Of a stretch of 64,000 nt of DNA, positions 1-49,233 are shown piece after piece. The DNA is taken from positions 17,003-81,002 of the forward strand of contig LNEJ01000027.1 in NCBI GenBank assembly GCA_001464965.1, written 5' to 3'. Origin of the DNA: Gammaproteobacteria bacterium Ga0074134 (lineage in GTDB: Bacteria > Pseudomonadota > Gammaproteobacteria > Ga0077554 > Ga007554). Position 1 is the stretch's first letter. Each line of letters begins with the position of its first letter. The notes below the pieces were generated by a model, which searched no databases, was not told the origin of the DNA, and worked only from the letters and a program-made list of their open reading frames with translations. A program made the translations under genes and the position numbers.

Positions 1-431
1 CTCGCGCCATAATGGGCGGACAAGAAGAGTCCAGTGCTTTGATGGATCTTTTCGCTGTGTTCCGCGAACTGCTGCAACCACGCATGGGCACGCCGGTCTT
101 GCCAGCTGATGACGGGCGAGAGCGCGGCGCCGCTATGCTTGTCCCAGCACACCACGCTGGAGCGTTGCGTGGCCAAACCTGCCGCGATCACAGTGCTGGC
201 GCGGTCGCCCAGACGGTGCATGGTATTGCTAATGGCGGTGTGTAGAGAGGTAATCAGTTGTGCTGGGTCATGCTCCGCCCAGCCGTCGTGAGGATGAGTA
301 ACGCCGATGGGTTGGAAGTCGCTGGCGACTATCCTTCCCTGGCTGTCAAATACCAGTGCGCGGCTCGCATGGCCGCCCTGGTCAATGGCGAGATAGAGCG
401 GGTCGTCAGGCGGCGCTGGCGTTGGGTTCAT
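1..431 (-). CDS. FGGY-family carbohydrate kinase (glycerol-kinase-like); N-terminal part only, the gene continues past the window start
   Basis: Manual minus-strand translation from the ATG at 431 gives [59 protein letters not shown]...VVCWDKHSGAALSPVISWQDRRA. This matches the FGGY/GlpK N-terminal motifs (AIDQGTTSSRAV..GWVEHDP..NQRET.V.W). There is no stop before position 1, so it is absent from the ORF track. It overlaps the NUDIX stop by 26 nt. Confidence 0.55.
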   Translation of the reverse strand, partial: MNPTPAPPDDPLYLAIDQGGHASRALVFDSQGRIVASDFQPIGVTHPHDGWAEHDPAQLITSLHTAISNTMHRLGDRASTVIAAGLATQRSSVVCWDKHSGAALSPVISWQDRRAHAWLQQFAEHSEKIHQSTGLFLSAHYGA

Positions 432-1565: not shown

Positions 1566-2822
1566 ATGACCTACGAAAAGATAACCGTCCCCGCCAATGG
1601 AGAACGGATTGCCGTTAATCCGGATTTTTCGCTTAATGTCCCGTCTTGCCCGATTATCCCATTCATCGAAGGGGACGGCATCGGCGTGGATGTCACGCCG
1701 GTCATGCGCACAGTGGTCAATGCGGCGGTAGCGAAGGCGTACGGCGGCGCCAAATCCATCGCCTGGATGGAGGTGTATGCCGGGGACAAGGCGACGCAGG
1801 TCTACGGTCGGGATGTTTATCTACCGGAGGAAACCATGCAGGCGCTACGTGAGTATCCCGTCTCCATCAAGGGGCCGCTGGCGACGCCGGTGGGTGGTGG
1901 AATCCGCTCCTTGAATGTCGCTCTGCGCCAGGAGCTGGACCTTTATATCTGTCTGCGCCCGGTGTGTTATTTCACCGGCACCCCCAGTCCTGTGAAGGCG
2001 CCGGAGAAGGTGGATATGGTGATCTTCCGCGAAAACTCCGAGGATATCTACGCCGGCATCGAGTGGGCGGCGGGTACGCCGGAGGCGCAGAAGGTGATCG
2101 ATTTTCTGCGCAACGAAATGGGCGTGAAAAAGATCCGTTTCCCCGGCAGCTCCGCCATCGGCATCAAGCCGGTGTCGCGCGAGGGCACCGAGCGTCTGGT
2201 GCGCAAGGCGTTACAGTATGCCATCGACAATGGACGTGACTCCGTGACGCTGGTTCACAAGGGCAATATCATGAAATTCACCGAGGGTGGATTCAAGAAT
2301 TGGGGTTATGAACTGGCCAAGGCTGAATTCGGCGCACAGGAGGTCGGTAGCGGGCCATGGTGCCGCATGAAAAACCCCAGGACAGGCGCTGAGATTCTCA
2401 TTAAAGACGTTATCGCCGACGCCTTTCTCCAGGAGATTCTGTTGCGTCCCGAGGATTTCAGCGTGATCGCCACGCTTAACCTCAATGGCGATTACATCTC
2501 CGATGCGCTGGCCGCGCAGGTGGGCGGTATCGGCATCGCCCCCGGCGCCAATCTGTCCGATTCCGTTGCCATGTTCGAGGCGACGCACGGCACTGCACCC
2601 AAACATGCCGGCAAGAATGATGTCAATCCCAGCTCCGTAATCCTCTCCGCGGAGATGATGCTGCGTCACATGGGCTGGTTTGAGGCGGCGGATCTGGTCA
2701 CCAAGGGCGTTGCAGGGGCCATTGCCAGCCATACCGTCACCCACGATCTGGCGCGATTGATGCCAGAAGCAACGCAGGTGAGCTGCTCCGGGTTTGGCGA
2801 GGCGGTTATTGCGAATATGTGA
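1566..2822 (+). CDS. icd: NADP-dependent isocitrate dehydrogenase
   Basis: Icd-type N-terminus [15 protein letters not shown]...[15 protein letters not shown]. The start is placed at ATG 1566 inside the longer ORF. Confidence 0.9.
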
Positions 2823-3475: not shown

Positions 3476-3796
3476 ATGAAAGAAGGACAACAGGATAATC
3501 ATGACGATGGAGTGGCGCTGGAGGAGGCGAAGCCGAAGCTCAAGCGCCCGCCCATGTACAAGGTGCTGCTGCTGAACGATGACTACACGCCTATGGAGTT
3601 TGTCGTTCACGTATTAGAGGTCTTTTTTGCCATGAGCCTTGATCAAGCCACACAGGTCATGCTGCATGTGCATACACGAGGGGTGGGGGTATGCGGTCTT
3701 TTTACGCGCGATATTGCCGAGACCAAGGTGGCCCAGGTGACACAATTCGCACAGGAAAACCAGCACCCGTTGAAATGCACCATGGAAGAAGCATAG
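3476..3796 (+). CDS. clpS: ATP-dependent Clp protease adaptor ClpS
   Basis: [27 protein letters not shown] is the ClpS core. Confidence 0.9.
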
Positions 3797-3892: not shown

Positions 3893-6160
3893 ATGTTAAG
3901 CAAGGACCTCGAATTCACGCTGAATATCGCCTTCAGAGAGGCGCGTGAGAAGTTGCACGAATTCATGACGGTCGAGCACTTGTTGCTCGCCTTGCTTGAT
4001 AATCCCGGGGCGGCTGCGGTATTGCGCGCTTGCGGCGCGGATCTCGACAGGCTGAAGAAAGATCTCGCCGCTTTTGTGGACGAGAGCACCCCGTTACTGC
4101 CCCCGCAGGATAAACGCGACACCCAGCCCACGCTGGGCTTTCAGCGGGTTCTGCAGCGCGCGGTGTTTCATGTGCAGTCCTCCGGAAAAAATGAAGTGCA
4201 GGCCGCCAACGTACTGGTCGCTATTTTCGGCGAGCAGGATTCACAGGCCGTCTACTTCCTCAACCGGCAGAACATCACGCGCCTGGACGTTGTGAATTAT
4301 ATCTCCCATGGCATCTCCAAGGTGCATGGCGAGGGCGAGGGGGCGCCGCACACGCCCTCCAGCGAGGACGAAGCGGGGGCAGAGGCGCCCGCCAAAAGCC
4401 CGCTTGAGCTCTATGCGGCCAATCTCAATCAGCTGGCCAGGCAGGGCAAGATCGACCCGCTGATCGGCCGCAAGCACGAAATCCAGCGCACCATCCAGAT
4501 CCTGTGCCGTCGCCGCAAGAATAACCCGCTGTTCGTCGGCGAGGCCGGCGTGGGCAAAACTGCGCTGGCCGAAGGGCTGGCGAAGATGATCATTGATGGC
4601 GAGGTGCCGGAGGTGCTGGCACATAGCACGGTGTATTCGCTGGATCTGGGCGCGCTGCTGGCGGGTACCAAGTATCGCGGTGATTTTGAAAAGCGCCTGA
4701 AAGGCGTGGTCAATCAGTTGCAGAAAGAAGCGGGCGCGATCCTGTTCATCGATGAGATTCATACCATCATCGGTGCGGGCGCAGCCTCCGGCGGGGTGAT
4801 GGACGCCTCTAACCTGATCAAGCCGGTGCTCGCCTCCGGTGCATTGAAGTGCATCGGTTCCACTACCTATCAGGAGTACCGCGGTGTTTTTGAGAAGGAC
4901 CGGGCCTTGGCGCGGCGTTTTCAAAAGATCGATGTGGCCGAACCCACGGTTGATGAGACGGTGCAGATTCTGGAAGGCCTGAAATCACGCTTTGAAGAGC
5001 ATCATCATGTCAAATACTCCAAGCAGGCGCTGCGTGTGGCGGCGGAACTGGCGGCGCGCTACATCAACGACCGTTATTTGCCCGACAAGGCGATTGACGT
5101 GATCGACGAGGTGGGGGCGAATCAGCACTTGCTGCCTGTCTCCAAACGCAAAAAAGTGATCGGCGCCAAGGAGATAGAGGACATCATCGCCAAGATTGCA
5201 CGTATTCCGCCCAAGAGCGTTTCCAGCTCCGACAAAGACGTGCTGCGCAATCTGGAGCGTGACCTGAAGATGCTGGTGTTTGGCCAGAACGATGCCATCG
5301 AGGCATTGGCATCTGCAATTAAGATGTCGCGGGCCGGCTTGGGCAATGCGCAAAAACCCATAGGCTCTTTCCTGCTCGCTGGCCCCACCGGCGTGGGCAA
5401 GACCGAAGTGACGCGCCAGCTTGCCAAGGTTATGGGGATCGAACTGATCCGCTTCGATATGTCCGAATACATGGAGCGCCATACCGTGTCGCGCCTGATC
5501 GGTGCGCCGCCGGGCTACGTGGGCTTTGACCAGGGCGGCCTATTGACCGAGGCGGTTACCAAGCACCCTCATGCGGTGCTGCTGCTGGATGAGATCGAGA
5601 AGGCGCATCCGGATGTTTTCAACATTCTATTGCAAGTGATGGATCATGGCACACTCACGGACAATAACGGGCGCAAGGCCGATTTCCGCAATGTGATCCT
5701 GATCATGACCACCAATGCCGGTGCGGATCAGATGAGCCGCAGTTCCATCGGTTTTGTACATCAGGATCATGCCAGCGACGGCACGGAGGCGATCAAGCGC
5801 TTGTTCAGCCCTGAATTCCGCAACCGCCTGGACGCCATTATCCAGTTCAAGCCGCTGGACAGCGCTACCATCGCCTTCGTGGTGGACAAGTTCATCATTG
5901 AGCTGGAGGCCCAGCTGGAAGATAAGAACGTGACACTCGAAGTCGACAATACCGCCCGGCAGTGGCTGGCCGAGCATGGTTATGACGAGAAAATGGGTGC
6001 GCGCCCGATGGCACGGATCATCCAGGAGCACATCAAGCGCCCCCTGGCCGAAGAACTGCTGTTTGGCAAGCTCGCGCGCGGCGGGCATATCCGCATCAGC
6101 GTAAGTGATGGCAAGCTGGCATTCGCGCTGGAAGGCGCGGAACAACTGCAGGAAAGTTAG
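3893..6160 (+). CDS. clpA: ATP-dependent Clp protease ATP-binding subunit ClpA
   Basis: 755 aa with two AAA+ modules (GEAGVGKT and GPTGVGKT) and the ClpA N-domain MLSKDLEFTLNIAFREAREKLHEFMTVEHLLLALL. Confidence 0.9.
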   Translation: MLSKDLEFTLNIAFREAREKLHEFMTVEHLLLALLDNPGAAAVLRACGADLDRLKKDLAAFVDESTPLLPPQDKRDTQPTLGFQRVLQRAVFHVQSSGKNEVQAANVLVAIFGEQDSQAVYFLNRQNITRLDVVNYISHGISKVHGEGEGAPHTPSSEDEAGAEAPAKSPLELYAANLNQLARQGKIDPLIGRKHEIQRTIQILCRRRKNNPLFVGEAGVGKTALAEGLAKMIIDGEVPEVLAHSTVYSLDLGALLAGTKYRGDFEKRLKGVVNQLQKEAGAILFIDEIHTIIGAGAASGGVMDASNLIKPVLASGALKCIGSTTYQEYRGVFEKDRALARRFQKIDVAEPTVDETVQILEGLKSRFEEHHHVKYSKQALRVAAELAARYINDRYLPDKAIDVIDEVGANQHLLPVSKRKKVIGAKEIEDIIAKIARIPPKSVSSSDKDVLRNLERDLKMLVFGQNDAIEALASAIKMSRAGLGNAQKPIGSFLLAGPTGVGKTEVTRQLAKVMGIELIRFDMSEYMERHTVSRLIGAPPGYVGFDQGGLLTEAVTKHPHAVLLLDEIEKAHPDVFNILLQVMDHGTLTDNNGRKADFRNVILIMTTNAGADQMSRSSIGFVHQDHASDGTEAIKRLFSPEFRNRLDAIIQFKPLDSATIAFVVDKFIIELEAQLEDKNVTLEVDNTARQWLAEHGYDEKMGARPMARIIQEHIKRPLAEELLFGKLARGGHIRISVSDGKLAFALEGAEQLQES

Positions 6161-6209: not shown

Positions 6210-6428
6210 TCAGCGGGCGCGGAAGGTGATGCGCGCCTTGCTCAGGTCATAAGGAGTCATTTCCACCGTAACCTTATCGCCGGTCAGAATGCGGATGTAG
6301 TTCTTGCGCATTTTTCCCGAGATGTGAGCCGTTACAATGTGGCCGTTATCAAGCTGTACCCGGAACATGGTATTGGGCAGGGTTTCCAATATCGTTCCTT
6401 CCATTTCAATATGATCTTCTTTTGCCAT
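6210..6428 (-). CDS. infA: translation initiation factor IF-1
   Basis: [53 protein letters not shown] is near-identical to bacterial IF-1. Confidence 0.95.
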
Positions 6429-6563
6429 GCAAATAATAGTGCTCTTGATGAATAATCATGGATGCCGAGCCAGGTTCACCCTGGCTTAATGAACCATTTT
6501 GCCTGAATCCAGTATGATTGGCAAAGTTTGTGTTATAAATTTGAGGTGCAATGTTTCTAAGCG

Positions 6564-8423
6564 GTGGCTGACAAACAAGATAAAGCAGAGGGCTATGGAA
6601 TGGTTCGTTGCATGGGCAGTAGTGGAGGCGGAAAAATCCTGAGGGTGATGTTTGCCTTGTTCGCCGTGGCGTCAGGGTTGCTGCTTGCGGGGTGCGGTTC
6701 CAGCGGAGGCGGTCCAAGTGGCGGGGGTGACACCACCAAGCCTTCCGTCATGCTCACCAGTCCTGCCAAGGATGCCACTGGCGTACCCGTCGCCGCCGTG
6801 CTTGCGGCTTCATTCTCCGAGGCCATGAAGGTTTCGACCATCTCCGATGTCACGTTCATCGTGAACGCGGGGAGTGACCAGGTTGCCGGAAAAGTCGCTT
6901 TCAGCGCGCTCTCCAATGCCGCGACTTTCACGCCCGATGCCCCCCTTAAGTACGATACAACCTATACCGTGACGATCAAGGCGGCGTCTGTAACGGATAT
7001 GTCAAACAATTCGTTGAATGCCAACTCGCCGGCGGGAGATTATGTCTGGAGCTTTACCACTACCCGGTCTGGCGCGGTGGATACCAGCTTTGGTGACGGT
7101 GGAACAGGTATAGGTACAGGTACAGGTAATGCCTCTGCCGCGATCACCCCATTTTCACCTCACGGCTCAAGTGAGGCTAGGTCCGTCGCCATCCAGCCGG
7201 ATGGTATGATCGTCGTCGCAGGTTCGGCGTGGAATGGCCGCGACTGGGATTTTGCGCTGGCTCGCTATAACCCGGAGGGCATCCTGGATACGACTTTTGG
7301 CCCGAATCGTACCGGTATAATGGTGCTTGATCTCGGCGGTGGTAAGCATGACATTGCGCAATCTCTGAAGATCGACACCAACGGCAAGATTGTGGTGGCG
7401 GGATTTGTTGCCAAAGGCCCCAACGACAACGACAACGACTTCGCCCTTGTGCGATTGAACCCGAATGGCACGCTTGATACCAATTTTGGAACGGACGGTA
7501 TCGTCACTACCGATTTCAACGGGCAGAATGATGTGGTTTATGCGCTTGCGATTCAGCCGGATGGGAAAATTGTTGTGGCGGGTTTTAGCAGTACGCGAGG
7601 TACGGCTACGTCTACCATCTTTGTTGATGCATACCAGGCCAATCCCATTATATTTGGAAGCGGTTTGACCGTATTCGATTTTGCGTTGGCCCGCTACGAC
7701 CAATCCGGCAAGCTTGATACCAGCTTCGGTAACGGGGGCATGGTCACCACGGCTGTTGGCGATAATGCCAGCGTTGCTCGTGCCATTGCTCTTCAAGCGG
7801 ACGGCAAGATTGTTGTGGCGGGGTATGCTGATCAGAACGCCCAAGCCAACTTCGCGTTGGCCCGCTTTGATGAGAACGGTAACCTGGATGCTGAGTTTGG
7901 CATTGGCGTCCGCGCTGGCAAGGTTATTACACCTATCGCGTCAGGCAAGGATAATGGAGCTCTGTCCGTGGCTATTCAGCCGGACGGCAAAATCGTCGCG
8001 GCCGGTACCGTTGAGAATGTTTTCGGCGGTACGGATTTCGGCCTTGCCCGCTATAACCGTGACGGTACTTTGGATAGCGATTTTGCGGGTGATGGCACAG
8101 TGATCACAGCCGTTGGCCCAAATGGCGGTGCCGTAGCTTTCGCTGTCACCGTTCAGGGGGATGGCAAGATCCTCACGGCGGGAGTGGCCTCAAATGGCAA
8201 GGACGATGATTTTGTCATGGTTCGCTATGGTGTGAATGGCTCTCTGGATAGCGGTTTTGGATTGGGTGGAAGGGTGACTACACCTGTGCGTTCCGGGGCG
8301 GATGTGGCATTTGCGGTAGCGATTCAGCCAGCGCTAGACAACAAGATCATCATGGCAGGAAGAAGCCTGCGCCCCAGCAATAATAGTATCTATGATTTCG
8401 CCCTGGTCCGTTATTGGCCATAA
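6564..8423 (+). CDS. lipoprotein with an N-terminal Ig-like (SbsA/Big_5-type) domain followed by about 8 delta-60-type beta-propeller repeats
   Basis: Lipobox LLLAGCGSSGG. The Ig-like segment is TTKPSVMLTSPAKDATGVP...YTVTIKAASVTDMSNNSL. The unit D(T/S)xFGxxG...A(I/L)AIQPDGKIVVAG...DFALARY recurs about every 55-60 aa. The true start may be M at 6600 or 6648. Confidence 0.6.
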   Translation: MADKQDKAEGYGMVRCMGSSGGGKILRVMFALFAVASGLLLAGCGSSGGGPSGGGDTTKPSVMLTSPAKDATGVPVAAVLAASFSEAMKVSTISDVTFIVNAGSDQVAGKVAFSALSNAATFTPDAPLKYDTTYTVTIKAASVTDMSNNSLNANSPAGDYVWSFTTTRSGAVDTSFGDGGTGIGTGTGNASAAITPFSPHGSSEARSVAIQPDGMIVVAGSAWNGRDWDFALARYNPEGILDTTFGPNRTGIMVLDLGGGKHDIAQSLKIDTNGKIVVAGFVAKGPNDNDNDFALVRLNPNGTLDTNFGTDGIVTTDFNGQNDVVYALAIQPDGKIVVAGFSSTRGTATSTIFVDAYQANPIIFGSGLTVFDFALARYDQSGKLDTSFGNGGMVTTAVGDNASVARAIALQADGKIVVAGYADQNAQANFALARFDENGNLDAEFGIGVRAGKVITPIASGKDNGALSVAIQPDGKIVAAGTVENVFGGTDFGLARYNRDGTLDSDFAGDGTVITAVGPNGGAVAFAVTVQGDGKILTAGVASNGKDDDFVMVRYGVNGSLDSGFGLGGRVTTPVRSGADVAFAVAIQPALDNKIIMAGRSLRPSNNSIYDFALVRYWP

Positions 8424-9142
8424 ATGGTGTGGAAAGCCGGATCAATAATATTCCAGCGCCCACCCCTGTAAGCCTCCAGCGGACGGTACTGGCTTTTATA
8501 GCGCATCTTGGGCGATGCTTCTATCCAGTAGCCGAGATAGACCCACGGTAAGCCGAGGCGGCTGGCTTCCTCGATCTGCCACAGCACGGCATACACCCCC
8601 AGGCTGCGCGCATGGTGGTCCGGGTCGAAGAAGGTGTATACCGCCGACAGCCCCTGCTCGAGATGATCGACTATGGCCACAGCCAGCAACTGGCCGCGCA
8701 GCCGGAATTCATAAAAGGCGGTGTCGATCCGGGGATGTGTGAAAAAAGACAGATAATGCTCCGGATCGGGGTCGTCCATGCCGCCGCCGGGGTGGCGGGT
8801 GGCGAGATAACGCCGGTAGAGCGCGAAGTGCTCTTCGTTGCGTACGGCCGCCACACGGCTAACTTGCAGGTCTGCATTGCGGCGCCAGGTGCGTTTCTGC
8901 ACGCGGTTGGGTTGGAATGCGGCAACGGGAATCCGCACCGGGATGCAGGCGTTGCAATCTTGGCAGTGGGGACGGTAGATGTGCTCGCCGCTGCGCCGGA
9001 AGCCATGATCAATAAGCCGGCTGTAGAGGTGTGTATCAACAGGCACGCGCGGATCGGGGAACAGGGTCGTTGCCGTGTGCCCCGGCAGGTAGCCGCAGGG
9101 GTGTGGCGTGCCGCTGTATAGGGCCAGGGTGCGGGTGGTCAT
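8411..9142 (-). CDS. bpt: arginyl/leucyl-tRNA--protein transferase Bpt (Ate1-like, acts on N-terminal Asp/Glu)
   Basis: MTTRTLALYSGTPHPCGYLPGH...HLYSRLIDHGFRRSG...CQDCNACIPVR is the Bpt/Ate1 N-terminal signature. The start is placed at the Met directly after the aat stop. Confidence 0.8.
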   Translation of the reverse strand: MTTRTLALYSGTPHPCGYLPGHTATTLFPDPRVPVDTHLYSRLIDHGFRRSGEHIYRPHCQDCNACIPVRIPVAAFQPNRVQKRTWRRNADLQVSRVAAVRNEEHFALYRRYLATRHPGGGMDDPDPEHYLSFFTHPRIDTAFYEFRLRGQLLAVAIVDHLEQGLSAVYTFFDPDHHARSLGVYAVLWQIEEASRLGLPWVYLGYWIEASPKMRYKSQYRPLEAYRGGRWNIIDPAFHTIYGQ

Positions 9143-9855
9143 ATGTCGCAAGGCTCGCATTCAATCCGCCACGGCGCGGGGTGGCCTGGTATGTCACGCC
9201 ATTGTTCCAATAACTTCTTGAAGCCGGCGCGGCTGATATCCTCGGCTCCCAGGCTCTGCAAGTGGCCGGAGCCTACCTGGCAATCAATCACGGCATAGCC
9301 CCAGCGCTCAAGTTGGCGCACCAGGTGGACAAAGGCCACCTTGGAGGCATCCGTAACGCGGCTGAACATGGATTCACCGAAAAACACCCTGCCGATTGCG
9401 ATACCATAAAGTCCGCCCGCCAGCTCATCTCCGCGCCAGGCCTCTACGGAGTGGGCAATGCCCATCTCATGCAGGCGGCAATAGGCATCGAGCATCTCGC
9501 TGGTGATCCATGTGCCCGCGCCATCAGTGCGCGGCGCGGCGCAGCCCTGCATCACCTGACGGAAGGCGGTATCCAGTGTTACCTTGAATTCTCCCTTTTT
9601 GAGCGTCTTGCGCAGGCTGCGCGATACTTTCAGGCGTGATGGAAACAGAACGGCACGGGGGTCGGGGGACCACCAGAGTATGGGTTGCCCGTCACTGTAC
9701 CAAGGGAAAATGCCGCAGCGATAGGCATTGATCAGACGTGCGGGCGCGAGATCGCCACCCGCCGCCAGCAGGCCGTTCGGTTCGCGGAAGGCGTATTCAA
9801 CGGGGGGGAATGAATGCGCGCCGTTAGCGGGGTTTATCCAAAATAACGTGCTCAT
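9139..9855 (-). CDS. aat: leucyl/phenylalanyl-tRNA--protein transferase
   Basis: LLAAGGDLAPARLINAYRCGIFPWYSDGQPILWWSPDPRAVL is the Aat signature. Confidence 0.9.
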   Translation of the reverse strand: MSTLFWINPANGAHSFPPVEYAFREPNGLLAAGGDLAPARLINAYRCGIFPWYSDGQPILWWSPDPRAVLFPSRLKVSRSLRKTLKKGEFKVTLDTAFRQVMQGCAAPRTDGAGTWITSEMLDAYCRLHEMGIAHSVEAWRGDELAGGLYGIAIGRVFFGESMFSRVTDASKVAFVHLVRQLERWGYAVIDCQVGSGHLQSLGAEDISRAGFKKLLEQWRDIPGHPAPWRIECEPCDI

Positions 9856-9966: not shown

Positions 9967-12342
9967 ATGTCATCCCAATCCTCTCAAAAAGATTCACCTT
10001 CCCCTCTTGGTCGTAACTGGTTTGCTCGCGGCTGGGGCAGCCCTGCTGTCAGGTATGTGCTGCTCATGGTGCTGCTGGCGGTGGTGGCTTATATCGCCTA
10101 TCTTGATCATACCGTGCGCAGCCAGTTCGAGGGTAACCGCTGGGCGCTGCCGGCGCAGGTTTATGCGCGCCCGCTCGAGCTTGTCCCTGATGCCCGCCTG
10201 AGTAGCGCGCAATTCGCGGAAGAGTTGCACATGCTGGGATATCGCCAGACCAAGGGCGAAAGGCTCACGGGCAGCTATGTGCGTAATGGGGACGAATTCC
10301 GGGTGGTGACGCGCCCCTTTACCTTTGGCGACGGCAGGGAAAATTCAGTTGCCTTGCGGGCGGTATTTTCCGCTGACCACCTGGTGAGTTTGCAGCACCT
10401 GGACAGTGGCAAGCCTCTGCCGCTGGTGCGTTTCGATCCTGTGCTGATCGGCAAAATCTACCCGGCGCACAATGAGGATCGGGTTTTTGTGCGCCTTAAA
10501 GAGGTGCCAGCTCCCCTCGTCAAGGGTTTGCTTGCCGTGGAAGACCGTAATTTCCGTGAACATCACGGCATAGACCCCATCGCCGTGGTGCGCGCCCTAT
10601 GGGCCGATGTGCGGGCGCGGGAGATGGTGCAGGGCGGCAGCACCTTGACCCAGCAGCTGGTGAAGAACTTTTTCCTCAGTAATGAACGCACCATGACGCG
10701 CAAGCTCAAGGAGGCCATCATGTCATGGCAGCTTGAGTGGCATTATGAGAAAGACGAGATATTTGAAGCCTATTGCAATGAAATCTACTTGGGGCAGTCC
10801 GGCAAGCACGCCATACACGGTTTTGGGCGCGCTAGCTGGTTCTATTTCCGCCGCCCGCTGAGCGATCTGCAGCTGCCCGAGTTGGCCCTGCTGGTGGGAT
10901 TGGTGCGCGGGCCGTCCTATTATGATCCGCGCCGTCATCCCGGACGTGCTCTTGCCCGCCGTAACCAGGTGCTGCAAATAATGGCGGAGCAGGGCGGCAT
11001 TACCGAAGCACAGGCACGCACCGCACAGGCCGCGCCGCTGGGTGTGACGGCCAAAGCGGCAAGCAGCGCAGCGCTTTCTCCCGCCTTCATAGATCTGGTG
11101 CGCCGCCAGTTGCGGCGCGATTATCAGGAACAAGACCTGAATTCGGCCGGTTTGCAAATCCTTACCACGCTCGACCCGCTGGTGCAAAACGCTGTGGCAG
11201 GCGCGATTAAAGGCCGTGTTGAAAGCCTGGAAAAACAGCAGCGCTTGCCTGCGGGCAGCCTGGAAGGGGCTGCGATTGTCACCAGCAGCGACGGTGGCGA
11301 AGTGCTGGCGGTGGCGGGTGGACGTGATGCCGACTCCACCGGTTTTAACCGTGTGCTGGATGCCAGGCGTCCCATCGGATCGTTGGTAAAGCCGGCCGTG
11401 TACCTCACTGCGCTGGCTAATCCCAAGAAATACACGTTGATCAGTCTGCTCGACGATGGTCCGCTGACACTCAAGAATCCCGGTGGGCAGCCCTGGAGGC
11501 CCTACAACTACGACCGGCAGTTTCATGGCTGGGTGCCTCTCAAAACCGCGCTGGCGCGCTCCTATAACCTCGCCACCGTGCGGCTGGGCATGGGCGTTGG
11601 CGTAAAGAATGTGCTGCATACGATGGAAAGCCTCGGAGTCAAGGAAAAGCTCAAGCCTTACCCTTCGGTGCTGCTTGGGGCCGCCGAACTGACGCCTTTC
11701 GAAGTCACTCAGATGTACCAGACGCTAGCCAGCGGCGGCTTCAACACCCCGTTGCGCGCCATTCGCGAGGTATTGAGCGTCGAGGGCAAACCGTTGCGGA
11801 GCTATGACATGACTGTCAAGCAGGCCTTTGATCCCGCCCCGGTCTATTTGCTCAATCGCGCGCTGCAGGATGTCATGCATAGCGGCACTGGGGTATCCCT
11901 GTACTCACGCGTGCCATGGTCATGGTCAGTGGCGGGAAAAACAGGTACTACCGATGATTTACGCGATAGCTGGTTTGCGGGATTCACCGGAGACCGGCTG
12001 GCGGTGGTGTGGATGGGCCGCGATGATAATCGCCCGACGGGGCTGAGCGGCGCGACCGGCGCATTACAGGCTTGGGGTGATGTTATGATGCGCATTGGCG
12101 CACAACCGTTGCGCCTGGAAGCGCCAAAAGGTATTGAGTGGGTCTGGATTGATCAACAGACACGCTTGCGCAGCATGGAGGGATGCGCGGGAGCCGCGCA
12201 GATGCCGTTTATGCGCGGCTCGGCCCCTGTGGAGATGGCGCCTTGCCTTGAGGGACCCGCCACTCCTGCCGATGCTGTTAGCGATACACTGAACAATGCA
12301 GTAGACAAAGCCGTTAACTGGCTCGACGAGGTATTGCGATGA
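9967..12342 (+). CDS. mrcB: penicillin-binding protein 1B (bifunctional glycosyltransferase/transpeptidase)
   Basis: 791 aa with an N-terminal TM helix, a UB2H-like segment, GT51 motifs (EDRNFREHHGID, GGSTLTQQL), and the transpeptidase SxxK/KTG motif (KTGTTDD). Confidence 0.9.
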   Translation: MSSQSSQKDSPSPLGRNWFARGWGSPAVRYVLLMVLLAVVAYIAYLDHTVRSQFEGNRWALPAQVYARPLELVPDARLSSAQFAEELHMLGYRQTKGERLTGSYVRNGDEFRVVTRPFTFGDGRENSVALRAVFSADHLVSLQHLDSGKPLPLVRFDPVLIGKIYPAHNEDRVFVRLKEVPAPLVKGLLAVEDRNFREHHGIDPIAVVRALWADVRAREMVQGGSTLTQQLVKNFFLSNERTMTRKLKEAIMSWQLEWHYEKDEIFEAYCNEIYLGQSGKHAIHGFGRASWFYFRRPLSDLQLPELALLVGLVRGPSYYDPRRHPGRALARRNQVLQIMAEQGGITEAQARTAQAAPLGVTAKAASSAALSPAFIDLVRRQLRRDYQEQDLNSAGLQILTTLDPLVQNAVAGAIKGRVESLEKQQRLPAGSLEGAAIVTSSDGGEVLAVAGGRDADSTGFNRVLDARRPIGSLVKPAVYLTALANPKKYTLISLLDDGPLTLKNPGGQPWRPYNYDRQFHGWVPLKTALARSYNLATVRLGMGVGVKNVLHTMESLGVKEKLKPYPSVLLGAAELTPFEVTQMYQTLASGGFNTPLRAIREVLSVEGKPLRSYDMTVKQAFDPAPVYLLNRALQDVMHSGTGVSLYSRVPWSWSVAGKTGTTDDLRDSWFAGFTGDRLAVVWMGRDDNRPTGLSGATGALQAWGDVMMRIGAQPLRLEAPKGIEWVWIDQQTRLRSMEGCAGAAQMPFMRGSAPVEMAPCLEGPATPADAVSDTLNNAVDKAVNWLDEVLR

Positions 12343-12845
12343 ATATGAATAATCAGATCAAGTCTGTCATTGCTGGGGTGACTACCGCGCTGTTGCTGGC
12401 TGGTTGTGCCTCGCACATGGGCAAGGATAAGCCCGCCGCCGCTCCCAAAGAATCGTCCCCCGTTGCCAGGGAGCAGAAAGTCACCCCCACGCCTAAAGAA
12501 GAAAACGCTAGCCCACCTCCTGCCGCGTCGCCCTCTCCGGCACCACCGGCGGCTGTGCCGGGACCCTCTCAAGCGACCAGTCCGGCTGTCGCCGATATGC
12601 TCAAGAAGGCGGAGCGGCTAGTAAAAACAAATAAATTGGGCGGGGCCGTCGCCATGCTGGAAAGGGCGCTACGCCTGGAACCCAAAAACCCTGTGATCTG
12701 GCATCGTCTGGCATTAATCCGCCAGCAGCAGGGACGCTTGGCGCAAGCCGCAGACCTGGCCGCCAAGTCCAATGCCTTGCTGGCGGAAAACGACCCTCTG
12801 CGCACCCAAAACGATAGCCTTATCGCCAAGGCGGGCAAGAAATAG
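12339..12845 (+). CDS. TPR-containing outer-membrane lipoprotein, LpoP-like candidate PBP1B activator
   Basis: Its ATG overlaps the mrcB stop (ATGA). Lipobox LLLAGCAS. A Pro/Ala-rich linker is followed by a C-terminal TPR-like segment ALRLEPKNPVIWHRLALIRQQQGRLAQA. Confidence 0.5.
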   Translation: MNMNNQIKSVIAGVTTALLLAGCASHMGKDKPAAAPKESSPVAREQKVTPTPKEENASPPPAASPSPAPPAAVPGPSQATSPAVADMLKKAERLVKTNKLGGAVAMLERALRLEPKNPVIWHRLALIRQQQGRLAQAADLAAKSNALLAENDPLRTQNDSLIAKAGKK

Positions 12846-13046
12846 TCTCACAGATCAGGCGCGCGTAGTGCGTCCTGATCTGCCGCTGTAATCCTTCCCC
12901 TCCCCGCAGTGGCTTTTTGATTTCTTATTGATTTCTCAGTGCCACGCCAACAGGTTATAATGTTCCGCTTTGTACCCGTGAATCCCCGTAAAAGGGAACA
13001 ATGGGGCACAATGCCTTGTTTTCATAATAACCGAAAGAAATCATCC

Positions 13047-15842
13047 ATGAGTGACAAAGAACTGCGGGAGCGCGTCAGGCTTTTTGGCAATCTGTTGGGC
13101 AATATTCTTAATGCCCAGGCCGGAGAGCGGGTGTTTGTCGCTGTAGAAACCTTGCGCAAAGGTTATCTTACCCTGCATGGCAAGGAAAATGTCCGGAAAA
13201 GACAACAGCTTGCCGAATTTATCAGCGAGTTGGATCCGGAGACGCTGACGCACGTGGTGCGCGCCTTCAGCACCTATTTCAGCCTGGTGAATATCGCCGA
13301 AGAGGCGTATCAGCATCGTCAGCGCCGTCTTCAGGTGCGCGCGGGCGGGCCGTTGTGGACAGGGTCGTTTGATGCGACGCTGCGCGAGTTTCACGACCAG
13401 GACATCACGGCGCAGCAGTTGCAGACGGTGCTCGAACGGTTGTCCTATATCCCCGTGATTACCGCGCATCCCACTGAATCGAAGCGCCGCACCATCATGG
13501 AGGCATTGCGGCGCATCTTCGTCACCAGCGAGCGTCTGGATGACCCGCGCGTGGGTCCCAATGAACGCGACGAAATCATTGAGTTGCTGGAGGGCCAGAT
13601 CCAGATCCTGTGGAAGACCGATGAGGTGCGCATCCATCGGCCTACGGTGCCTGACGAAATCAAAAACGGTATTTATTATTTTCAGGAGTGCCTGTTCCAG
13701 GCGGTACCGGTTACTTATCGTTACCTGGAAAAGGCCATCAAGAAGACTTATGGCGCCGATCCGTCCAATGGCAGGGCGATTGCCGCGCCGAGCTTGCTGC
13801 GCTTTGGGTCGTGGATCGGCGGTGACCGGGACGGTAATCCCAACGTCACCCCGGAGACCACGGTGCTTGCGCTGCGCCTTCAGGCGCGCGCCATACTGCT
13901 GGAATATATCAGCCGGGTGACACAGCTTAGCTATGTTCTGACGCACTCCGTGCTGTTGTGTAAGCCGTCCCTGGCGTTTCTGGCCAGCCTGAAGCGGGAT
14001 GATCACTTCCTGGACAAGGCCTTGCGCGACGCGCCCGCCCGGTTCGCCAATGAGCCATACCGGCGCAAGCTGTACGTGATGCGTTATCGCTTGGAGGCCA
14101 ACCTCTTGCTGGTCAAAAAGCGTATCGAAAATAAAGAGGTGGATGACCCGGGGATGGGTTACGGCTCCGAGGAGGAATTGCTCACTGATCTTTATTTGAT
14201 GCACGATTCTTTGATAAGCCACGGTGATGCCAGTGTCGCCGAAGGCGATTTGAAGGACCTGATACGTTTGGTCGAGACCTTCGGCTTTTTCCTGATGCAT
14301 CTGGATGTGCGTCAGGAATCATCACGCCATACCGCGGCCGTGGCGGAGTTGCTGGCTCAGCAGCCGGAAGCTGTTAATTATTTTGGGTTGTCCGAAGTGG
14401 AGCGCATGGCGCTGCTCTCCGCGGTTATTGCTGAAGACCGCCCGCTGATGGCCGATGCGAAGGTGTTGAGCCCCGCCACACTTGAAACCCTGGAGGTGTT
14501 CGCGGTAATGGCGCGGATGCGCCGCGAAATCAGCCCTAAGGCCTTCGGCAGTTACGTCATTTCAATGACGCACGCCGCCAGTCACATTATGGAGGTGATG
14601 CTGCTGGCGCGCCAGGCGGGGCTGGCCGGTTGCAAGGACGAAGGGTGGTTTTGCAATATACATATCGCGCCGCTGTTTGAAACCATCAACGATCTGGCGC
14701 ATATCGAACAGGTGTTGACGGCGCTTTTCGATAACCCCACCTACGCCGCACTGCTCAAGGTATCGGGCAACAAGCAAGAGGTGATGCTGGGATACTCCGA
14801 TTCCTGCAAGGACGGCGGCATCTTAACCTCTTCGTGGTACCTCTACGAGGCGCAGAAAAAAATCACCGCCATTACTACATCGCGCGATATCGAGTGCCGC
14901 CTCTTCCACGGGCGCGGTGGTACAGTTGGGCGTGGCGGCGGCCCTACGCACGAGTCCATCCTTTCCCAGCCCGCGGGCACGGTGTTTGGACAGATCAAAT
15001 TCACCGAACAGGGGGAGATGATCTCGTACAAGTACAGCAACACGGAAACGGCGGTCTATGAGCTTTCCATGGGTATCACTGGTCTGCTCAAGGCGAGCCG
15101 CGGCTTGATCCAGGCGCCTGCCGCAGAACAGCGTGAGCATCTTGATACCATGGCCCAGCTGTCGCAGGCCGGAGAGGCGGCCTACCGCAACTTGACGGAT
15201 CAAACCGCCGGTTTTCTCGATTATTTCTATGAGGCTACACCCGTCAGCGAGATCGGCTTGCTCAACATCGGTTCTCGTCCGTCACACCGTAACAAGGCGG
15301 ACCGCTCGAAGAATTCGGTGCGTGCGATTGCCTGGGTATTTGGCTGGGGCCAGTCGCGCCACACATTGCCCGCCTGGTATGGCATCGGCACTGCACTGGC
15401 GAGCTGGCGGAAAAATACGCCGGAGCGCTTTTCCCAGCTCCAGGCCATGTACAAGGAATGGCCGTTTTTCCGCGCCATGCTGAGCAATACCCAGATGGCG
15501 TTGTTCAAGGCGGACATGTCGATCGCACAGGAATATGCGGAACTGTGCAATGATGCAGATGCGCGGCAGTGTGTCTATAACCTGATTCTTGATGAGTATG
15601 AACGGACGGTGAGCCAGATTCTGGATGTGGCCGGGATAGAATCGCTGGTCGAGGAAAATCCGCTGCTGGCACTCTCCATGCGCCGCCGCAATCCTTACCT
15701 GGATCCCCTGAATCATATTCAGGTAACCCTCCTCAAACGCTACCGCGACACCTCCCTAAGCGATGCGGAACGCGCCGCCTGGCTGGACCCGCTATTGCGA
15801 TCCATCAACGCGATTGCTGCAGGGATGAGGAATACCGGGTAA
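13047..15842 (+). CDS. ppc: phosphoenolpyruvate carboxylase
   Basis: Carries the VITAHPTESKRRT and GRGGTVGRGGGP catalytic motifs. The start is placed at MSDKELRE inside the longer ORF. Confidence 0.9.
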   Translation: MSDKELRERVRLFGNLLGNILNAQAGERVFVAVETLRKGYLTLHGKENVRKRQQLAEFISELDPETLTHVVRAFSTYFSLVNIAEEAYQHRQRRLQVRAGGPLWTGSFDATLREFHDQDITAQQLQTVLERLSYIPVITAHPTESKRRTIMEALRRIFVTSERLDDPRVGPNERDEIIELLEGQIQILWKTDEVRIHRPTVPDEIKNGIYYFQECLFQAVPVTYRYLEKAIKKTYGADPSNGRAIAAPSLLRFGSWIGGDRDGNPNVTPETTVLALRLQARAILLEYISRVTQLSYVLTHSVLLCKPSLAFLASLKRDDHFLDKALRDAPARFANEPYRRKLYVMRYRLEANLLLVKKRIENKEVDDPGMGYGSEEELLTDLYLMHDSLISHGDASVAEGDLKDLIRLVETFGFFLMHLDVRQESSRHTAAVAELLAQQPEAVNYFGLSEVERMALLSAVIAEDRPLMADAKVLSPATLETLEVFAVMARMRREISPKAFGSYVISMTHAASHIMEVMLLARQAGLAGCKDEGWFCNIHIAPLFETINDLAHIEQVLTALFDNPTYAALLKVSGNKQEVMLGYSDSCKDGGILTSSWYLYEAQKKITAITTSRDIECRLFHGRGGTVGRGGGPTHESILSQPAGTVFGQIKFTEQGEMISYKYSNTETAVYELSMGITGLLKASRGLIQAPAAEQREHLDTMAQLSQAGEAAYRNLTDQTAGFLDYFYEATPVSEIGLLNIGSRPSHRNKADRSKNSVRAIAWVFGWGQSRHTLPAWYGIGTALASWRKNTPERFSQLQAMYKEWPFFRAMLSNTQMALFKADMSIAQEYAELCNDADARQCVYNLILDEYERTVSQILDVAGIESLVEENPLLALSMRRRNPYLDPLNHIQVTLLKRYRDTSLSDAERAAWLDPLLRSINAIAAGMRNTG

Positions 15843-43681: not shown

Positions 43682-43758
43682 TGGTGCCCCGGATACGATT
43701 TGAACGTACGACCTTCCCCTTAGGAGGGGGATGCTCTATCCAGCTGAGCTACCGGGGC
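43682..43758 (-). tRNA. tRNA-Arg (anticodon CCT)
   Basis: The reverse complement folds as a cloverleaf GCCCCGG TA GCTC AGCTGGATA GAGC A TCCCC CTCCTAA GGGGA AGGTC GTACG TTCAAAT CGTAT CCGGGGC ACCA. Confidence 0.8.
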
Positions 43759-43798
43759 GTGGAGAAAGGAGTCAATGATGCCCCGGCTTGGGCGGGAT

Positions 43799-43874
<76 letters not shown>

Positions 43875-46460: not shown

Positions 46461-46726
46461 GAGCCTGTCTGTGAATAAATCATCCCTGCGACGGAGGCTG
46501 GTTTTGCGCAGGGCAAGGAACGCTGAGCGTAGTGTGCTTGTTGCACATGAGCGAAGCGTGACGCCGCACCGCGCAAAACCGGCCCCGTCCCTTCGGGTTG
46601 CTCCCCAAAACACGCCATGCGGCGTTGCTCGTCGTTTATTTGGAATCACCAAACTTCTCTCCTCGCGCCTTGCCTGGCGTGTTTTGGGGAGCAACGCAGG
46701 GATGATTTATTCACAGACAGGCTCTC
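46461..46726. mobile_element. 264-bp MITE-like element, copy 2 (inverted relative to copy 1)
   Basis: TIRs gagcctgtctgtgaataaatcatccctgcg / cgcagggatgatttattcacagacaggctc. Sits in the divergent flgA / cheV promoter region. Confidence 0.65.
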
Positions 46727-46735
46727 AGATATTGC

Positions 46736-46762
46736 TTAAGTATCGGGTTGCCGTGCCGATAT
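46736..46762 (+). promoter_or_regulatory. candidate sigma28 (FliA) promoter for cheV-cheR
   Basis: TTAAGTAT, 11-nt spacer, GCCGATAT, compared with the consensus TAAAGTTT-N11-GCCGATAA. It lies 38 nt upstream of the cheV ATG. Confidence 0.4.
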
Positions 46763-46800
46763 TTCGCATATCGATAAATGACGTTCTTAAGGAGAATGGC

Positions 46801-47748
46801 ATGGCAAGCGTATTGGATGATGTGGACAAGCGAACCAAGATGGTGGGGCAGAATCGGCTGGAGCTGTTGTTGTTTCGGTTGAATGACACGCAGTACTTTG
46901 GCATCAATGTTTTTAAGGTGCGTGAAGTTATTCAATGCCCCCCGCTGGCACATCTACCCAAAGCCCATCCTTCAATCTGCGGTGTTGCCACTATACGCGG
47001 CAAAACCATCCCTGTGATTGATCTGTCCATGGCTATAGGCCAGACGCCCATGGCAGATCCGGCGCGTGGTTATGTTATTGTCACAGAATATAACCGATCG
47101 GTTCAGGGATTGCTGGTGAATGGCATGGATCGTATCGTCAATATGAACTGGGAGTCAGTGCTGGCGCCACCCAAAGGTACGGGTTCCTGCAGCTATCTGA
47201 CGGCGGTGACGCGGCTCAATGACCAATTGATCGAGATCCTTGATGTGGAGAAGGTGTTTGCCGAGATTATCCATTGTTCTCTCACGGTTTCCGAGGATTT
47301 GGTTGAAGAGGGTGTTGCGCAACACGACATACAACCGCATGTGTTGGTTGTGGATGATTCCAGTGTGGCGCGCAATCAGATCAAACGCACTCTTGAGCAG
47401 ATGAAAATTTCGTATACCTTGGCGCCGGATGGTCGTGAGGCGCTGGAGTTGCTGAAAAAATGGGCGGACACTCAAGACCCTCTCTTGCAGCGTCTGAGTC
47501 TGGTGATTTCCGATATTGAAATGCCTGAAATGGACGGCTATACGTTGACGACCGAGATCCGCAAGGATGAACGCTTACGTAGCCTCTATGTCATGCTGCA
47601 TTCATCATTAAGCGGCGTATTCAACGATGCCATGGTGAAGAAAGTCGGCGCGGATGAGTTTATCGCAAAATTCAGTGCGGATGACCTTGCGGCGGCGGCC
47701 ATGAAGAGGATTAAAATGTACAGCGTAGGGAAAATTCAGGCCGCTTGA
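46801..47748 (+). CDS. cheV: chemotaxis protein CheV (CheW-like plus receiver domain)
   Basis: CheW-like LLLFRLNDTQYFGINVFKVREV plus REC HVLVVDDSSVARN...DIEMPEMDG. The start is placed after the MITE. Confidence 0.8.
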   Translation: MASVLDDVDKRTKMVGQNRLELLLFRLNDTQYFGINVFKVREVIQCPPLAHLPKAHPSICGVATIRGKTIPVIDLSMAIGQTPMADPARGYVIVTEYNRSVQGLLVNGMDRIVNMNWESVLAPPKGTGSCSYLTAVTRLNDQLIEILDVEKVFAEIIHCSLTVSEDLVEEGVAQHDIQPHVLVVDDSSVARNQIKRTLEQMKISYTLAPDGREALELLKKWADTQDPLLQRLSLVISDIEMPEMDGYTLTTEIRKDERLRSLYVMLHSSLSGVFNDAMVKKVGADEFIAKFSADDLAAAAMKRIKMYSVGKIQAA

Positions 47749-47803
47749 AATCTGTTGAATGCCGTATGCAGATTGCCGGCCCAATACCATGCCAGGGACT
47801 CCT

Positions 47804-48643: not shown

Positions 48644-48771
48644 ACACCCCGGCAGGCATGGAAGCCTGCCGCCGCAAGGTTTGCCGCAAGGCGGAAATAT
48701 ATTGCCGCAGGATGTGAATTCTCCCCCCTCTTTGTAATGTAACCCATTGTTTTAATATCTCATCTAAATTT

Positions 48772-48787
48772 TGGCACAGACTCTGCA
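48772..48787 (+). promoter_or_regulatory. sigma54 (RpoN) promoter upstream of flgB
   Basis: TGGCAC agact cTGCA has the -24 GG and -12 GC elements at correct spacing. It lies about 40 nt upstream of the flgB ATG. Confidence 0.5.
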
Positions 48788-48825
48788 TTGATCCTTGGCA
48801 GGTACAGTAAGGATGGAGTCAGACG

Positions 48826-49230
48826 ATGCCAATCAATCTCGACAAAGCATTAGGAATATATCCGCAGGCGCTTGCCTTGCGCGCACGCCGCGCGGAAGTT
48901 CTGGCGGCCAATATGGCCAATGCGGATACGCCGAATTACAAGGCCAAGGATATCGACTTCAAAGCGGTGCTGAATCAGGCCAGGGATCAATCAAGCAGTA
49001 ATGCTTCCGTTTTGGTGCGTACCCATGCGACCCACCTGCCTTCTGGTTTGGATCTGACGTCGGGGTCGGTGAAGTACCGCGTTCCAGAACAGTCGTCACT
49101 GGATGGCAATACGGTGGATACGGAGACAGAGCAGGCTGAATTTACCCGTAATGCGATTCAGTATCAGGCCACACTCACTTTTCTCAATGGTCGCATCAGG
49201 GGTTTGATGACGGCTATCAGGGGAGATTAA
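48826..49230 (+). CDS. flgB: flagellar basal-body rod protein FlgB
   Basis: N-terminal rod motif and operon position. Confidence 0.85.
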   Translation: MPINLDKALGIYPQALALRARRAEVLAANMANADTPNYKAKDIDFKAVLNQARDQSSSNASVLVRTHATHLPSGLDLTSGSVKYRVPEQSSLDGNTVDTETEQAEFTRNAIQYQATLTFLNGRIRGLMTAIRGD

Positions 49231-49233
49231 TCC

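Follow-up and report, generated by a model that had tools for sequence, protein, structure and literature searches.

The 64-kb window analysed here, that is, the whole stretch of DNA under study, raises the question of why a gene for a lipoprotein with tandem delta-60 repeats is located within the clpS-clpA-infA-bpt-aat locus, and what its product may do. The preliminary description of this DNA had called the position of the gene beside the two N-degron transferases striking. The reading preferred here, to which we assign a probability of roughly 0.55, is that it is a stand-alone, vertically inherited accessory gene, encoding a surface-anchored, non-catalytic binding propeller that is unrelated to the N-degron pathway. 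The features on which the analysis is based are listed in Table 1.

Table 1. Features of the lipoprotein gene and its surroundings (positions of the window)
Feature	Position	Strand	Details
clpS	3476-3796	+	
clpA	3893-6160	+	
infA (IF-1)	6210-6428	-	TIGR00008, 123.9 bits; flank, outside inserted unit
Divergent infA/lipoprotein intergenic region	6429-6599		Clade alignment, promoter scan
Delta-60 lipoprotein CDS	6600-8423	+	607 aa plus stop; frame open from GTG 6564
Putative type II (lipoprotein) signal peptide	6600-6695	+	MVRCMGSSGGGKILRVMFALFAVASGLLLAG, then C; lipobox LLAGC; Cys32 codon 6693-6695
Gly/Ser-rich flexible tether GSSGGGPSGGG	6696-6728	+	Directly after the Cys predicted to be lipidated
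Big_5 bacterial Ig-like domain	6729-7061	+	Residues ~44-154 of 607 aa (56-166 in 619-aa numbering)
Seven tandem delta-60 repeats, predicted seven-bladed beta-propeller	7077-8420	+	Profile matches and AF2
Repeat units 1-4	7077-7283, 7284-7472, 7473-7712, 7713-7880	+	
Repeat units 5-7	7881-8066, 8067-8240, 8241-8420	+	
In-frame hexanucleotide repeat ACAGGT x4.2	7104-7128	+	Gly-Thr tract entering blade 1; TRF
Lipoprotein (+)/bpt (-) convergent stop overlap	8411-8423		13 bp
bpt (Ate-family aminoacyl-tRNA-protein transferase)	8411-9160	-	PF04376, PF04377, NF002341 (339 bits); flank, outside inserted unit
aat	9139-9855	-	

In the ORF list of the window, the reading frame is uninterrupted from 6564 to 8423 on the plus strand, as described for a gene of 619 aa, whereas the protein itself most likely starts at ATG 6600 and comprises 607 aa. 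This start was preferred because the ribosome-binding site (AGAGGG at 6587-6592, 7 nt upstream) and the ATG are invariant in the orthologues, with variable sequence upstream of them, and because a 607-aa protein was called independently. In the alignment of five orthologous loci, the block comprising the ribosome-binding site and ATG 6600 did not vary at all, while the region around GTG 6564 was variable and contained a 13-bp indel; the independent call is that of an identical protein in the database (P0001). Two minus-strand shadow ORFs (7167-7844 and 6593-6931) were dismissed, as the HMM matches, the conservation of the lipobox and codon-level selection all belong to the plus frame. A second delta-60 gene was not found in the 64-kb window.

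The gene is divergent from infA and convergent with bpt, i.e. encoded on the strand opposite to both, and its orientation suggests that it forms its own transcription unit. In the clade alignment, the infA-proximal two thirds of the divergent intergenic region were nearly invariant, with variation and the 13-bp indel in the lipoprotein-proximal third. The promoter scan yielded no convincing sigma-70-like promoter for the plus-strand gene; a candidate extended -10 element, TGTTATAAA (6531-6539), was rejected, as it is located within the indel that is missing from two orthologues. Likewise, no terminator-like hairpin was detected in a scan between the convergent lipoprotein gene and bpt. The two genes overlap in the window, unlike in the orthologous loci, where they are about 25-45 bp apart.

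The N-terminus of the protein has the features of a lipoprotein signal peptide: a positively charged n-region with K12 and R15, a hydrophobic h-region (FALFAVASGLL) and the lipobox L-A-G-C32, which agrees with the consensus [LVI][ASTVI][GAS]C. None of the five orthologues deviates from the extended form (M/L)LLAGC. Residues 11-30 are predicted by AF2 to be helical. The product would thus be exported via Sec and lipidated at Cys32. The tether that follows had a pLDDT below 50 in the AF2 model and is kept as a low-complexity Gly/Ser tract in the orthologues. The Ig-like domain was matched by Pfam profile PF13205 over its entire length (positions 1-105 of 105; E = 3.3e-22, 79.6 bits compared to a cut-off of 23.6), and 71% of its columns are invariant across the five orthologues. 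Its low AF2 confidence is explained by the fact that just six alignment rows cover the Big_5 region. When metagenome contigs were scanned with the protein, close relatives were absent; the scan returned one distant propeller and several unrelated lipoproteins that have only the lipobox followed by Big_5 in common with it, a combination often found at the N-terminus of lipoproteins without other kinship.

Membership in the delta-60 family was judged by a whole-protein score above the curated cut-off together with tandem matches to the 55-position model. NCBIfam profile TIGR02608 (delta_60_rpt) matched in seven stretches with E = 9.5e-99 and 323.2 bits (cut-off 76.5), and Pfam profile PF17164 (DUF5122, 'beta-propeller') in five stretches with E = 9.4e-62 and 205.4 bits (gathering threshold 27). 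In a high-confidence model, the repeats are predicted to fold as a single closed seven-bladed beta-propeller, and the best structural matches of the AF2 model in Foldseek were seven-bladed propellers. The residues conserved in the repeats are ..LD..FG..G, QPDGKIVVAG and DFALARY. Across the family, the invariant positions are such repeated structural residues, with no unique pocket. Variation among the five orthologues is concentrated in the propeller loops (42% invariant, compared to 69% for the strands), and the Gly-Thr tract entering blade 1 differs in length, the indels in the alignment reaching 10 residues. Hence, the lipobox, the Ig-like domain, the delta-60 assignment and the propeller fold of the preliminary description all held up, with seven repeats in place of the approximately eight it had counted.

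Judged by its profile matches, the lipoprotein is an additional member of a large uncharacterised family, for which at least 7,997 relatives were retrieved at E ≤ 1e-5; architectures were taken from the best 120 of these. Within this set, most relatives are longer (800-1050 aa), have a larger number of repeats and terminate in T9SS, SLH, HYR or CarboxypepD_reg modules. The T9SS sorting domain PF18962 is present in about 22 and SLH in 2 of the 120, and other members carry HYR, cadherin, dockerin or CarboxypepD_reg domains. The architecture of about 600 aa, with Big_5 and a single propeller, was shared by six other proteins of the best 120 (P0001-4, P0062 and P0099), and Big_5 was paired with delta-60 repeats in one protein of 958 aa (P0113). 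Searches of the PDB sequences with the single protein or a 45-sequence profile recovered no solved relative of the delta-60 family, but only weak matches to NHL propellers (TRIM2, TRIM71), the PkwA WD40 propeller and the designed 'Bagel' propellers. In the literature on delta-60, DUF5122 and TIGR02608, no characterised member was found, and DUF5122 is named among the families without a structure.

Taken together, these features suggest an arrangement in which a lipid anchor would be followed by a tether of about 12 residues, a Big_5 Ig-like stalk and the seven-bladed propeller. The conserved repeat residues would make up the structural core and the blade junctions, and the fast-evolving loops the faces. 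Judged by its fold and by the variability pattern, the propeller is most probably a non-catalytic platform that binds a polysaccharide or a protein, either outside the cell or in the envelope. A partner gene, a ligand or a conserved operon was not found. By analogy with the secreted and surface-sorted architectures of the family, the most likely location is the cell surface. The roles raised in the preliminary description, as an adhesin, an S-layer-associated protein or a phage receptor, are possible.

According to the Lol sorting rules, the +2 residue decides between retention in the inner membrane and transport to the outer membrane. Here, +2 is Gly rather than Asp (followed by Ser at +3 and +4), so that an inner-membrane retention residue is lacking and the protein would probably be sorted to the outer membrane. 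By default, this route would end at the outer membrane's inner leaflet, and in the locus no surface-export signal or partner of a known kind (Slam, T2SS, T9SS) was seen. It is therefore possible, though on balance improbable, that the protein faces the periplasm, with the propeller acting as a scaffold or binder inside the envelope in the manner of BamB or YncE. BamB (YfgL) is an eight-bladed lipoprotein with PQQ-like blades and no Ig domain, and YncE a seven-bladed periplasmic protein. The protein described here has seven blades and matched no PQQ or BamB profile in Pfam or NCBIfam. BamB and YncE are broadly conserved, whereas the lipoprotein gene is limited to one clade, a distribution that speaks against a core envelope function. 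Moreover, domains for extracellular sorting or anchoring predominate by far among the family relatives, and the fast, loop-centred evolution and the length-variable entry into blade 1 are more typical of exposed proteins. The Leptospira antigen Lp49 (PDB 3BWS) is among the closest known systems.

A catalytic propeller, i.e. an extracytoplasmic enzyme akin to CylK/BrtB, Vgb-type lyases, polysaccharide lyases or sialidases, appears unlikely. Among solved structures, the closest is that of the enzyme CylK; next in Foldseek came Vgb lyase, rhamnose-glucuronate lyase, PL24 lyases, sialidases and strictosidine synthase. Vgb and several other matches are enzymes as well. In CylK, Ca2+ sites are found at every blade junction, and the active site lies at the interface with an N-terminal Ca2+-binding beta-roll, whose Arg105 it needs (PMC8916777). 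The invariant Asp-rich junction motif N.DG.LD..FG of the delta-60 repeats could be equivalent to these Ca2+ sites. However, the C-terminal propeller of CylK/BrtB (PDB 7RON, 7ROO, 7FH6) is only 15-17% identical to that of the lipoprotein and was not recovered when the PDB sequences were searched with the profile. The delta-60 protein, a lipoprotein unlike CylK, has a Big_5 Ig domain in place of the beta-roll and therefore lacks both Arg105 and the active site between the domains. Among the Pfam and NCBIfam profiles, no calcium-binding one of the RTX or hemolysin type matched the lipoprotein, and the residues that are invariant across the family are repeated and structural. The neighbours were housekeeping genes in each of the six contexts compared, with no CylC-type halogenase, resorcinol-pathway, natural-product or other biosynthetic or catabolic context. 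More speculative still is the idea that the delta-60/DUF5122 propellers are true homologues of CylK/BrtB, with Ca2+-stapled junctions and N.DG.LD..FG as the metal site; the compact lipoprotein described here would then be an envelope enzyme or a Ca2+-dependent receptor.

To place the gene in its genomic context, bpt loci were compared across the Gammaproteobacteria. All neighbouring genes were as previously claimed, including the four N-degron genes, of which bpt encodes the enzyme that transfers Leu to N-terminal Asp and Glu (PMC9351520). The order and orientation of the cspD-clpS-clpA-infA-(bpt)-aat locus in the window are identical to those in at least 29 fetched loci and, without bpt, in E. 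coli K-12; of the 80 loci fetched, 29 contained clpS, clpA, infA, bpt and aat together, many of the others being too short to show all five. The 'complete Leu/N-degron pathway in 6 kb' emphasised in the preliminary description is thus the standard gene order, and the sole difference from the canonical locus is a 2-kb insertion between infA and bpt. This insertion, which had been proposed, was borne out by the gap lengths: in 66 gammaproteobacterial loci with bpt and infA, the gap had a median of 138.5 bp and ranged from -8 to 832 bp, save for two clade members with 2031 and 2036 bp. The gene was found between infA and bpt solely in five genomes of the window's own clade. Delta-60 sequences occurred in 2 of the 80 bpt loci (L001 and L002) and in none of the other 78 within 10 kb on either side of bpt. 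The closest homologue of the same architecture outside the clade among the best 120 matches (P0062, 53% identity) is encoded between ubiB and tfoX; another (P0099) is 51% identical, but its locus (L084) is too short for an informative view of the neighbours. The gene is therefore real and a clade-restricted accessory insertion into a compact, widely conserved locus. The preliminary description had considered an ancient conserved neighbour with a known annotation; what we found is conservation in one shallow clade, and no functional annotation.

The infA-bpt slot emerges as plastic and tolerant of insertions, and as a recurrent insertion site in Gammaproteobacteria. A small ORF occupies it in eleven other lineages, and in one clade member (L082) it has grown to some 5.7 kb and also holds an Rrf2 regulator, a PNPOx gene and a second copy of the lipoprotein gene, which is broken into two ORFs. 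Functional coupling of the lipoprotein to ClpS/ClpA, Bpt and Aat would agree with the adjacency kept in five genomes of one clade and with the 13 bp that the gene shares, in the window, with the 3' end of bpt, but it is very improbable. The gene lies on the strand opposite to infA, bpt and aat, shows no co-occurrence with bpt and aat across lineages and is missing from 78 of the 80 bpt loci; its product would be exported, whereas the N-degron machinery is cytoplasmic; homologues elsewhere, such as the one at ubiB-tfoX, are not found beside N-degron genes; and three other unrelated genes share the same slot in L082. The best reading is that the adjacency is coincidental, with no link between the lipoprotein gene and the N-degron genes. 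The slot would be occupied because it tolerates insertions, not because the lipoprotein works with the Leu/N-degron machinery.

The dN/dS of the lipoprotein gene is 0.27-0.35, compared to 0.035 for ClpA and about 0.16 for Bpt, which indicates that it is fast-evolving, under purifying but relaxed selection. Since its dS (0.40-0.53) is similar to that of the flanking genes (0.27-0.60), the gene was inherited vertically together with the locus. GC3 is 0.59, as opposed to 0.62-0.74 in the neighbours, a mildly lower value resembling that of the flagellar genes, and neither GC3 nor codon usage gave a clear foreign signature. The next bpt relatives sampled beyond the clade are only about 62-65% identical. 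With GC3 only mildly lower, the origin of the insertion cannot be traced. That the gene is non-functional, being an insertion in decay or an ORF arisen by chance in GC-rich DNA, as the split second copy in L082 and the promoter scan might suggest, can practically be dismissed given the frame intact in five genomes with this dN/dS at a dS of about 0.4-0.5, the strong HMM matches, the conserved ribosome-binding site, start codon and lipobox, and the confident fold prediction.

For the locus, the value of these results is mostly negative: the striking juxtaposition of a propeller and the N-degron genes is a lineage-specific insertion and not a new functional module. For the family, the short seven-repeat lipoprotein provides a minimal, well-predicted representative of delta-60/DUF5122, which is very large and has almost no literature. 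The structural affinity to the CylK propeller, with its Ca2+ at the blade junctions, leads to a testable idea on the role of the signature motif. If this idea were true, a catalytic or metal-dependent function would have gone unrecognised in many thousands of secreted bacterial proteins that are uncharacterised, and the 607-aa protein with its single propeller would be the representative most amenable to a first structure.

The open reading frame of the delta-60 lipoprotein extends without interruption from 6564 to 8423 (+ strand). Its start, placed at GTG 6564 in the preliminary description, was reassigned to ATG 6600 as the most likely initiation codon, yielding a product of 607 aa. A Shine-Dalgarno sequence (AGAGGG), rated good, lies 7 nt 5' of this ATG. 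When the five orthologous intergenic regions were aligned, the block comprising ribosome-binding site and ATG was identical throughout; the region 5' of it, including the GTG 6564 area, was variable and contained a 13-bp indel. The identical database protein P0001, whose gene had been called separately, also comprises 607 aa. The flanking genes described previously were recovered in the ORF list and by Pfam and NCBIfam matches; the locus is additionally flanked by icd and a cold-shock gene, listed before clpS.

Coordinates of features in the window, the lipoprotein and related loci
Sequence	Feature	Position	Strand	Remarks
Window	clpS	3476-3796	+	
Window	clpA	3893-6160	+	
Window	infA	6210-6428	-	
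Window	Gly-Thr tract	7104-7128		entry to blade 1; in-frame hexanucleotide repeat ACAGGT x4.2
Window	bpt	8411-9160	-	
Window	aat	9139-9855	-	
Window	PBP1b gene	9967-12342	+	
Lipoprotein	signal peptide	residues 1-31		K12 and R15, hydrophobic core, then lipobox L-A-G-C32
Lipoprotein	Gly/Ser tether	after Cys32		GSSGGGPSGGG
Lipoprotein	Big_5 Ig-like domain	residues ~44-154		
Lipoprotein	seven delta-60 units	residues 160-607		
Locus L082	lipoprotein copy A	7959-9758		
Locus L082	bpt-derived remnant	~10034-10231		antisense fragment
Locus L082	second lipoprotein copy	10189-11493 and 11433-11897		split in two ORFs
Locus L082	Rrf2-family regulator	11927-12565	-	
Locus L082	PNPOx-family gene	12630-13307	-	
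Locus L026	small ORF	about 1972-2202	+	
Locus L046	small ORF	about 10868-11140	+	

In the window genome only, the convergent coding regions of the lipoprotein gene and bpt overlap by 13 bp (8411-8423), where no terminator-like structure was seen between them; their spacing is ~25-45 bp in the orthologous loci. The infA leader/promoter region (6429-6530, minus strand, upstream of infA) is nearly invariant in the five genomes. It contains a hairpin (GCCAGG...CCTGGC), in which locus L002 shows a C>T substitution paired with a G>A substitution and L083 lacks 9 nt; the region may represent a structured infA 5' UTR. Rfam matches in the window were limited to two tRNAs, tRNA-Arg(CCT) and tRNA-Ala(CGC), at 43682-43874. 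A flagellar/chemotaxis cluster (46471-62652) encodes a CheW-receiver fusion, FlgE, FlgI, FlgK, an FlgL-like protein and flagellin. The source organism, represented only by metagenome-assembled genomes, is a gammaproteobacterium with motility; groundwater isolate NC_groundwater_614 is the closest of these.

Profile searches assigned the product to the proposed families: Big_5 (PF13205) matched over its full profile length (E 3.3e-22), DUF5122 'beta-propeller' (PF17164) scored 205 bits (cut-off 27) and the NCBIfam delta-60 repeat domain TIGR02608 scored 323 bits (cut-off 76.5) in seven stretches. The lipobox was confirmed, (M/L)LLAGC being unchanged in all five orthologues. The protein shows every testable feature of the delta-60/DUF5122 family, of Big_5 and of lipoproteins. 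Each of the five orthologues has a Gly-Thr tract of different length, with differences of up to ~10 residues, pointing to slipped-strand changes in the length of a blade-1 loop or linker. Longer loop insertions are present in blades 1 and 3.

An AlphaFold2 model built from a 45-sequence alignment (mean pLDDT 80, pTM 0.75) gave a confident beta-propeller, as anticipated, with nearly all of the propeller at pLDDT >90; the Ig domain was modelled with low confidence because just six alignment rows cover it. The estimate of about eight repeats had to be lowered to seven, given the seven HMM stretches, the 28 strands of the model, which fall into seven sets of four, and the junction motif R(Y/L/F)..G.LD..F, which occurs in six copies plus a degenerate one at the junction of Ig domain and propeller. 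With start codon and repeat count corrected, the observation itself was confirmed.

Searched by sequence alone, the PDB yielded no real relative, only weak matches to NHL, WD40 and designed 'Bagel' proteins, and in the literature searched a single paper mentioned DUF5122, as a family without known structure. Foldseek against the PDB returned as top match the Friedel-Crafts alkylating enzyme CylK (E 2e-18; next matches ~1e-8). The CylK propeller has seven blades with a Ca2+ site at every blade junction, and the active site of CylK, situated where the propeller meets an N-terminal Ca2+-binding beta-roll, needs Arg105 of the beta-roll (PMC8916777). The strictly conserved Asp-containing delta-60 junction motif may reasonably be inferred to be the counterpart of the CylK junction metal sites.

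The pre-protein would be exported by Sec, lipidated at Cys32 and sorted to the outer membrane by Lol on account of Gly at +2 and Ser at +3 and +4. Tether and Ig-like stalk would keep the single seven-bladed propeller off the membrane, with conserved repeat residues forming its core and blade junctions and variable loops serving as putative interaction surfaces. Of the best 120 relatives, about 22 have a T9SS sorting domain at their end, and further ones contain SLH, HYR, cadherin, dockerin or CarboxypepD_reg modules; the pairing of lipobox and Big_5 is a frequent N-terminal cassette among lipoproteins that are otherwise unrelated. The family context points to a probable extracellular or surface role. 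An envelope-anchored, probably surface-exposed, non-catalytic binding protein for a putative ligand is therefore favoured (probability roughly 0.55). A periplasm-facing scaffold comparable to BamB or YncE is unlikely; with seven blades and no PQQ profile match, the lipoprotein lacks the defining features of BamB. A catalytic propeller, as in CylK, is more doubtful still: unlike the CylK/BrtB enzymes, the lipoprotein has no beta-roll domain and no biosynthetic context, and a CylK-type identity was rejected because the beta-roll is missing.

For comparison of the insertion site, one genome per species was scanned with the Bpt protein, giving 80 loci with flanks of up to 10 kb. Both bpt and infA were present in 66 of these, with a median gap of 138.5 bp and a range of -8 to 832 bp, except for L001 and L002 (Bpt 88% identical), whose gaps of 2031 and 2036 bp each hold a lipoprotein orthologue; the proposed insertion between infA and bpt is thus borne out by spacing. 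Delta-60-like sequence was absent within 10 kb of bpt from all other loci of the 80. In L082 and L083, members of the same clade reached via the protein database, the gene likewise lies between infA and bpt. The slot of L082 (GCA_040183005.1, JAMPIW010000007.1; 7803-13540) is enlarged to ~5.7 kb, and its content indicates a segmental duplication with additional insertions. Moderately enlarged gaps (440-830 bp) in eleven distant gammaproteobacterial lineages (L014, L015, L016, L018, L019, L021, L026, L027, L032, L046 and L060) hold a small conserved unannotated ORF of ~76-90 aa on the bpt/infA strand (consensus MLSFLFRLI.DF...HG..PN.LY.N..HY..L...). It had no Pfam match and could be a small gene of the infA/bpt locus that has so far escaped recognition. 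Given these gaps and L082, the slot is a recurrent insertion point. Upstream of clpS in L083 (GCA_947085925.1), the place of icd and the cold-shock gene is taken by transposase fragments (PF00872, PF01527) together with a ribonuclease/barstar pair (4027-4663), so that the conserved block has a rearranged left edge in this genome.

Whereas fold, family and insertion were upheld, the significance attached to the neighbourhood was not. Being transcribed away from infA and towards bpt, the lipoprotein gene could not share a transcript with any N-degron gene; neither its strand nor its phyletic pattern fits the N-degron module, and the nearest homologue of the same architecture outside the clade (P0062, 53% identity) has ubiB and tfoX as its neighbours, in the genome of a different gammaproteobacterium. 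A genuine tie to the pathway is very improbable. All genes of the pathway, including that of Bpt, a Leu-transferase acting on N-terminal Asp and Glu (PMC9351520), are present within 6 kb as claimed, but this arrangement is standard: the order cspD-clpS-clpA-infA-aat is that of E. coli K-12, and its version with bpt is common among the 80 loci, 71 of which have aat next to bpt and 29 of which show clpS, clpA, infA, bpt and aat together.

Against the four orthologues, dS of the lipoprotein gene was 0.40-0.53, comparable to the flanking genes (0.27-0.60); the gene has therefore been inherited with the locus since the ancestor of the clade. Its GC3 (0.59) is slightly below that of its neighbours (0.62-0.74) and near that of the window's flagellar genes, giving no clear foreign signature. 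Its dN/dS was 0.27-0.35, with values of 0.02-0.06 for infA, clpA and clpS, 0.07-0.10 for the PBP1b gene, 0.11-0.14 for aat and 0.15-0.18 for bpt; amino-acid identity was 72-78% (ClpA 97%). Invariant positions made up 69% of propeller strands, only 42% of loops and 71% of the Ig domain. These comparisons suggest a protein that is functional yet evolves fast and probably has contact with the environment; a non-functional ORF is scarcely conceivable.

Among the best 120 database matches, only 6 other proteins combine Big_5 and delta-60 at ~600 aa, and P0113 (958 aa) also pairs them; judged from these matches, the architecture is uncommon. Such proteins already bear the NCBI label 'Ig-like domain-containing protein', and the lipoprotein is a further member of a known, functionally uncharacterised family. 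Its value lies in its compactness as an example of a family that is very large and has no known function, and in linking the delta-60 family to CylK, a structural connection that is specific and testable.
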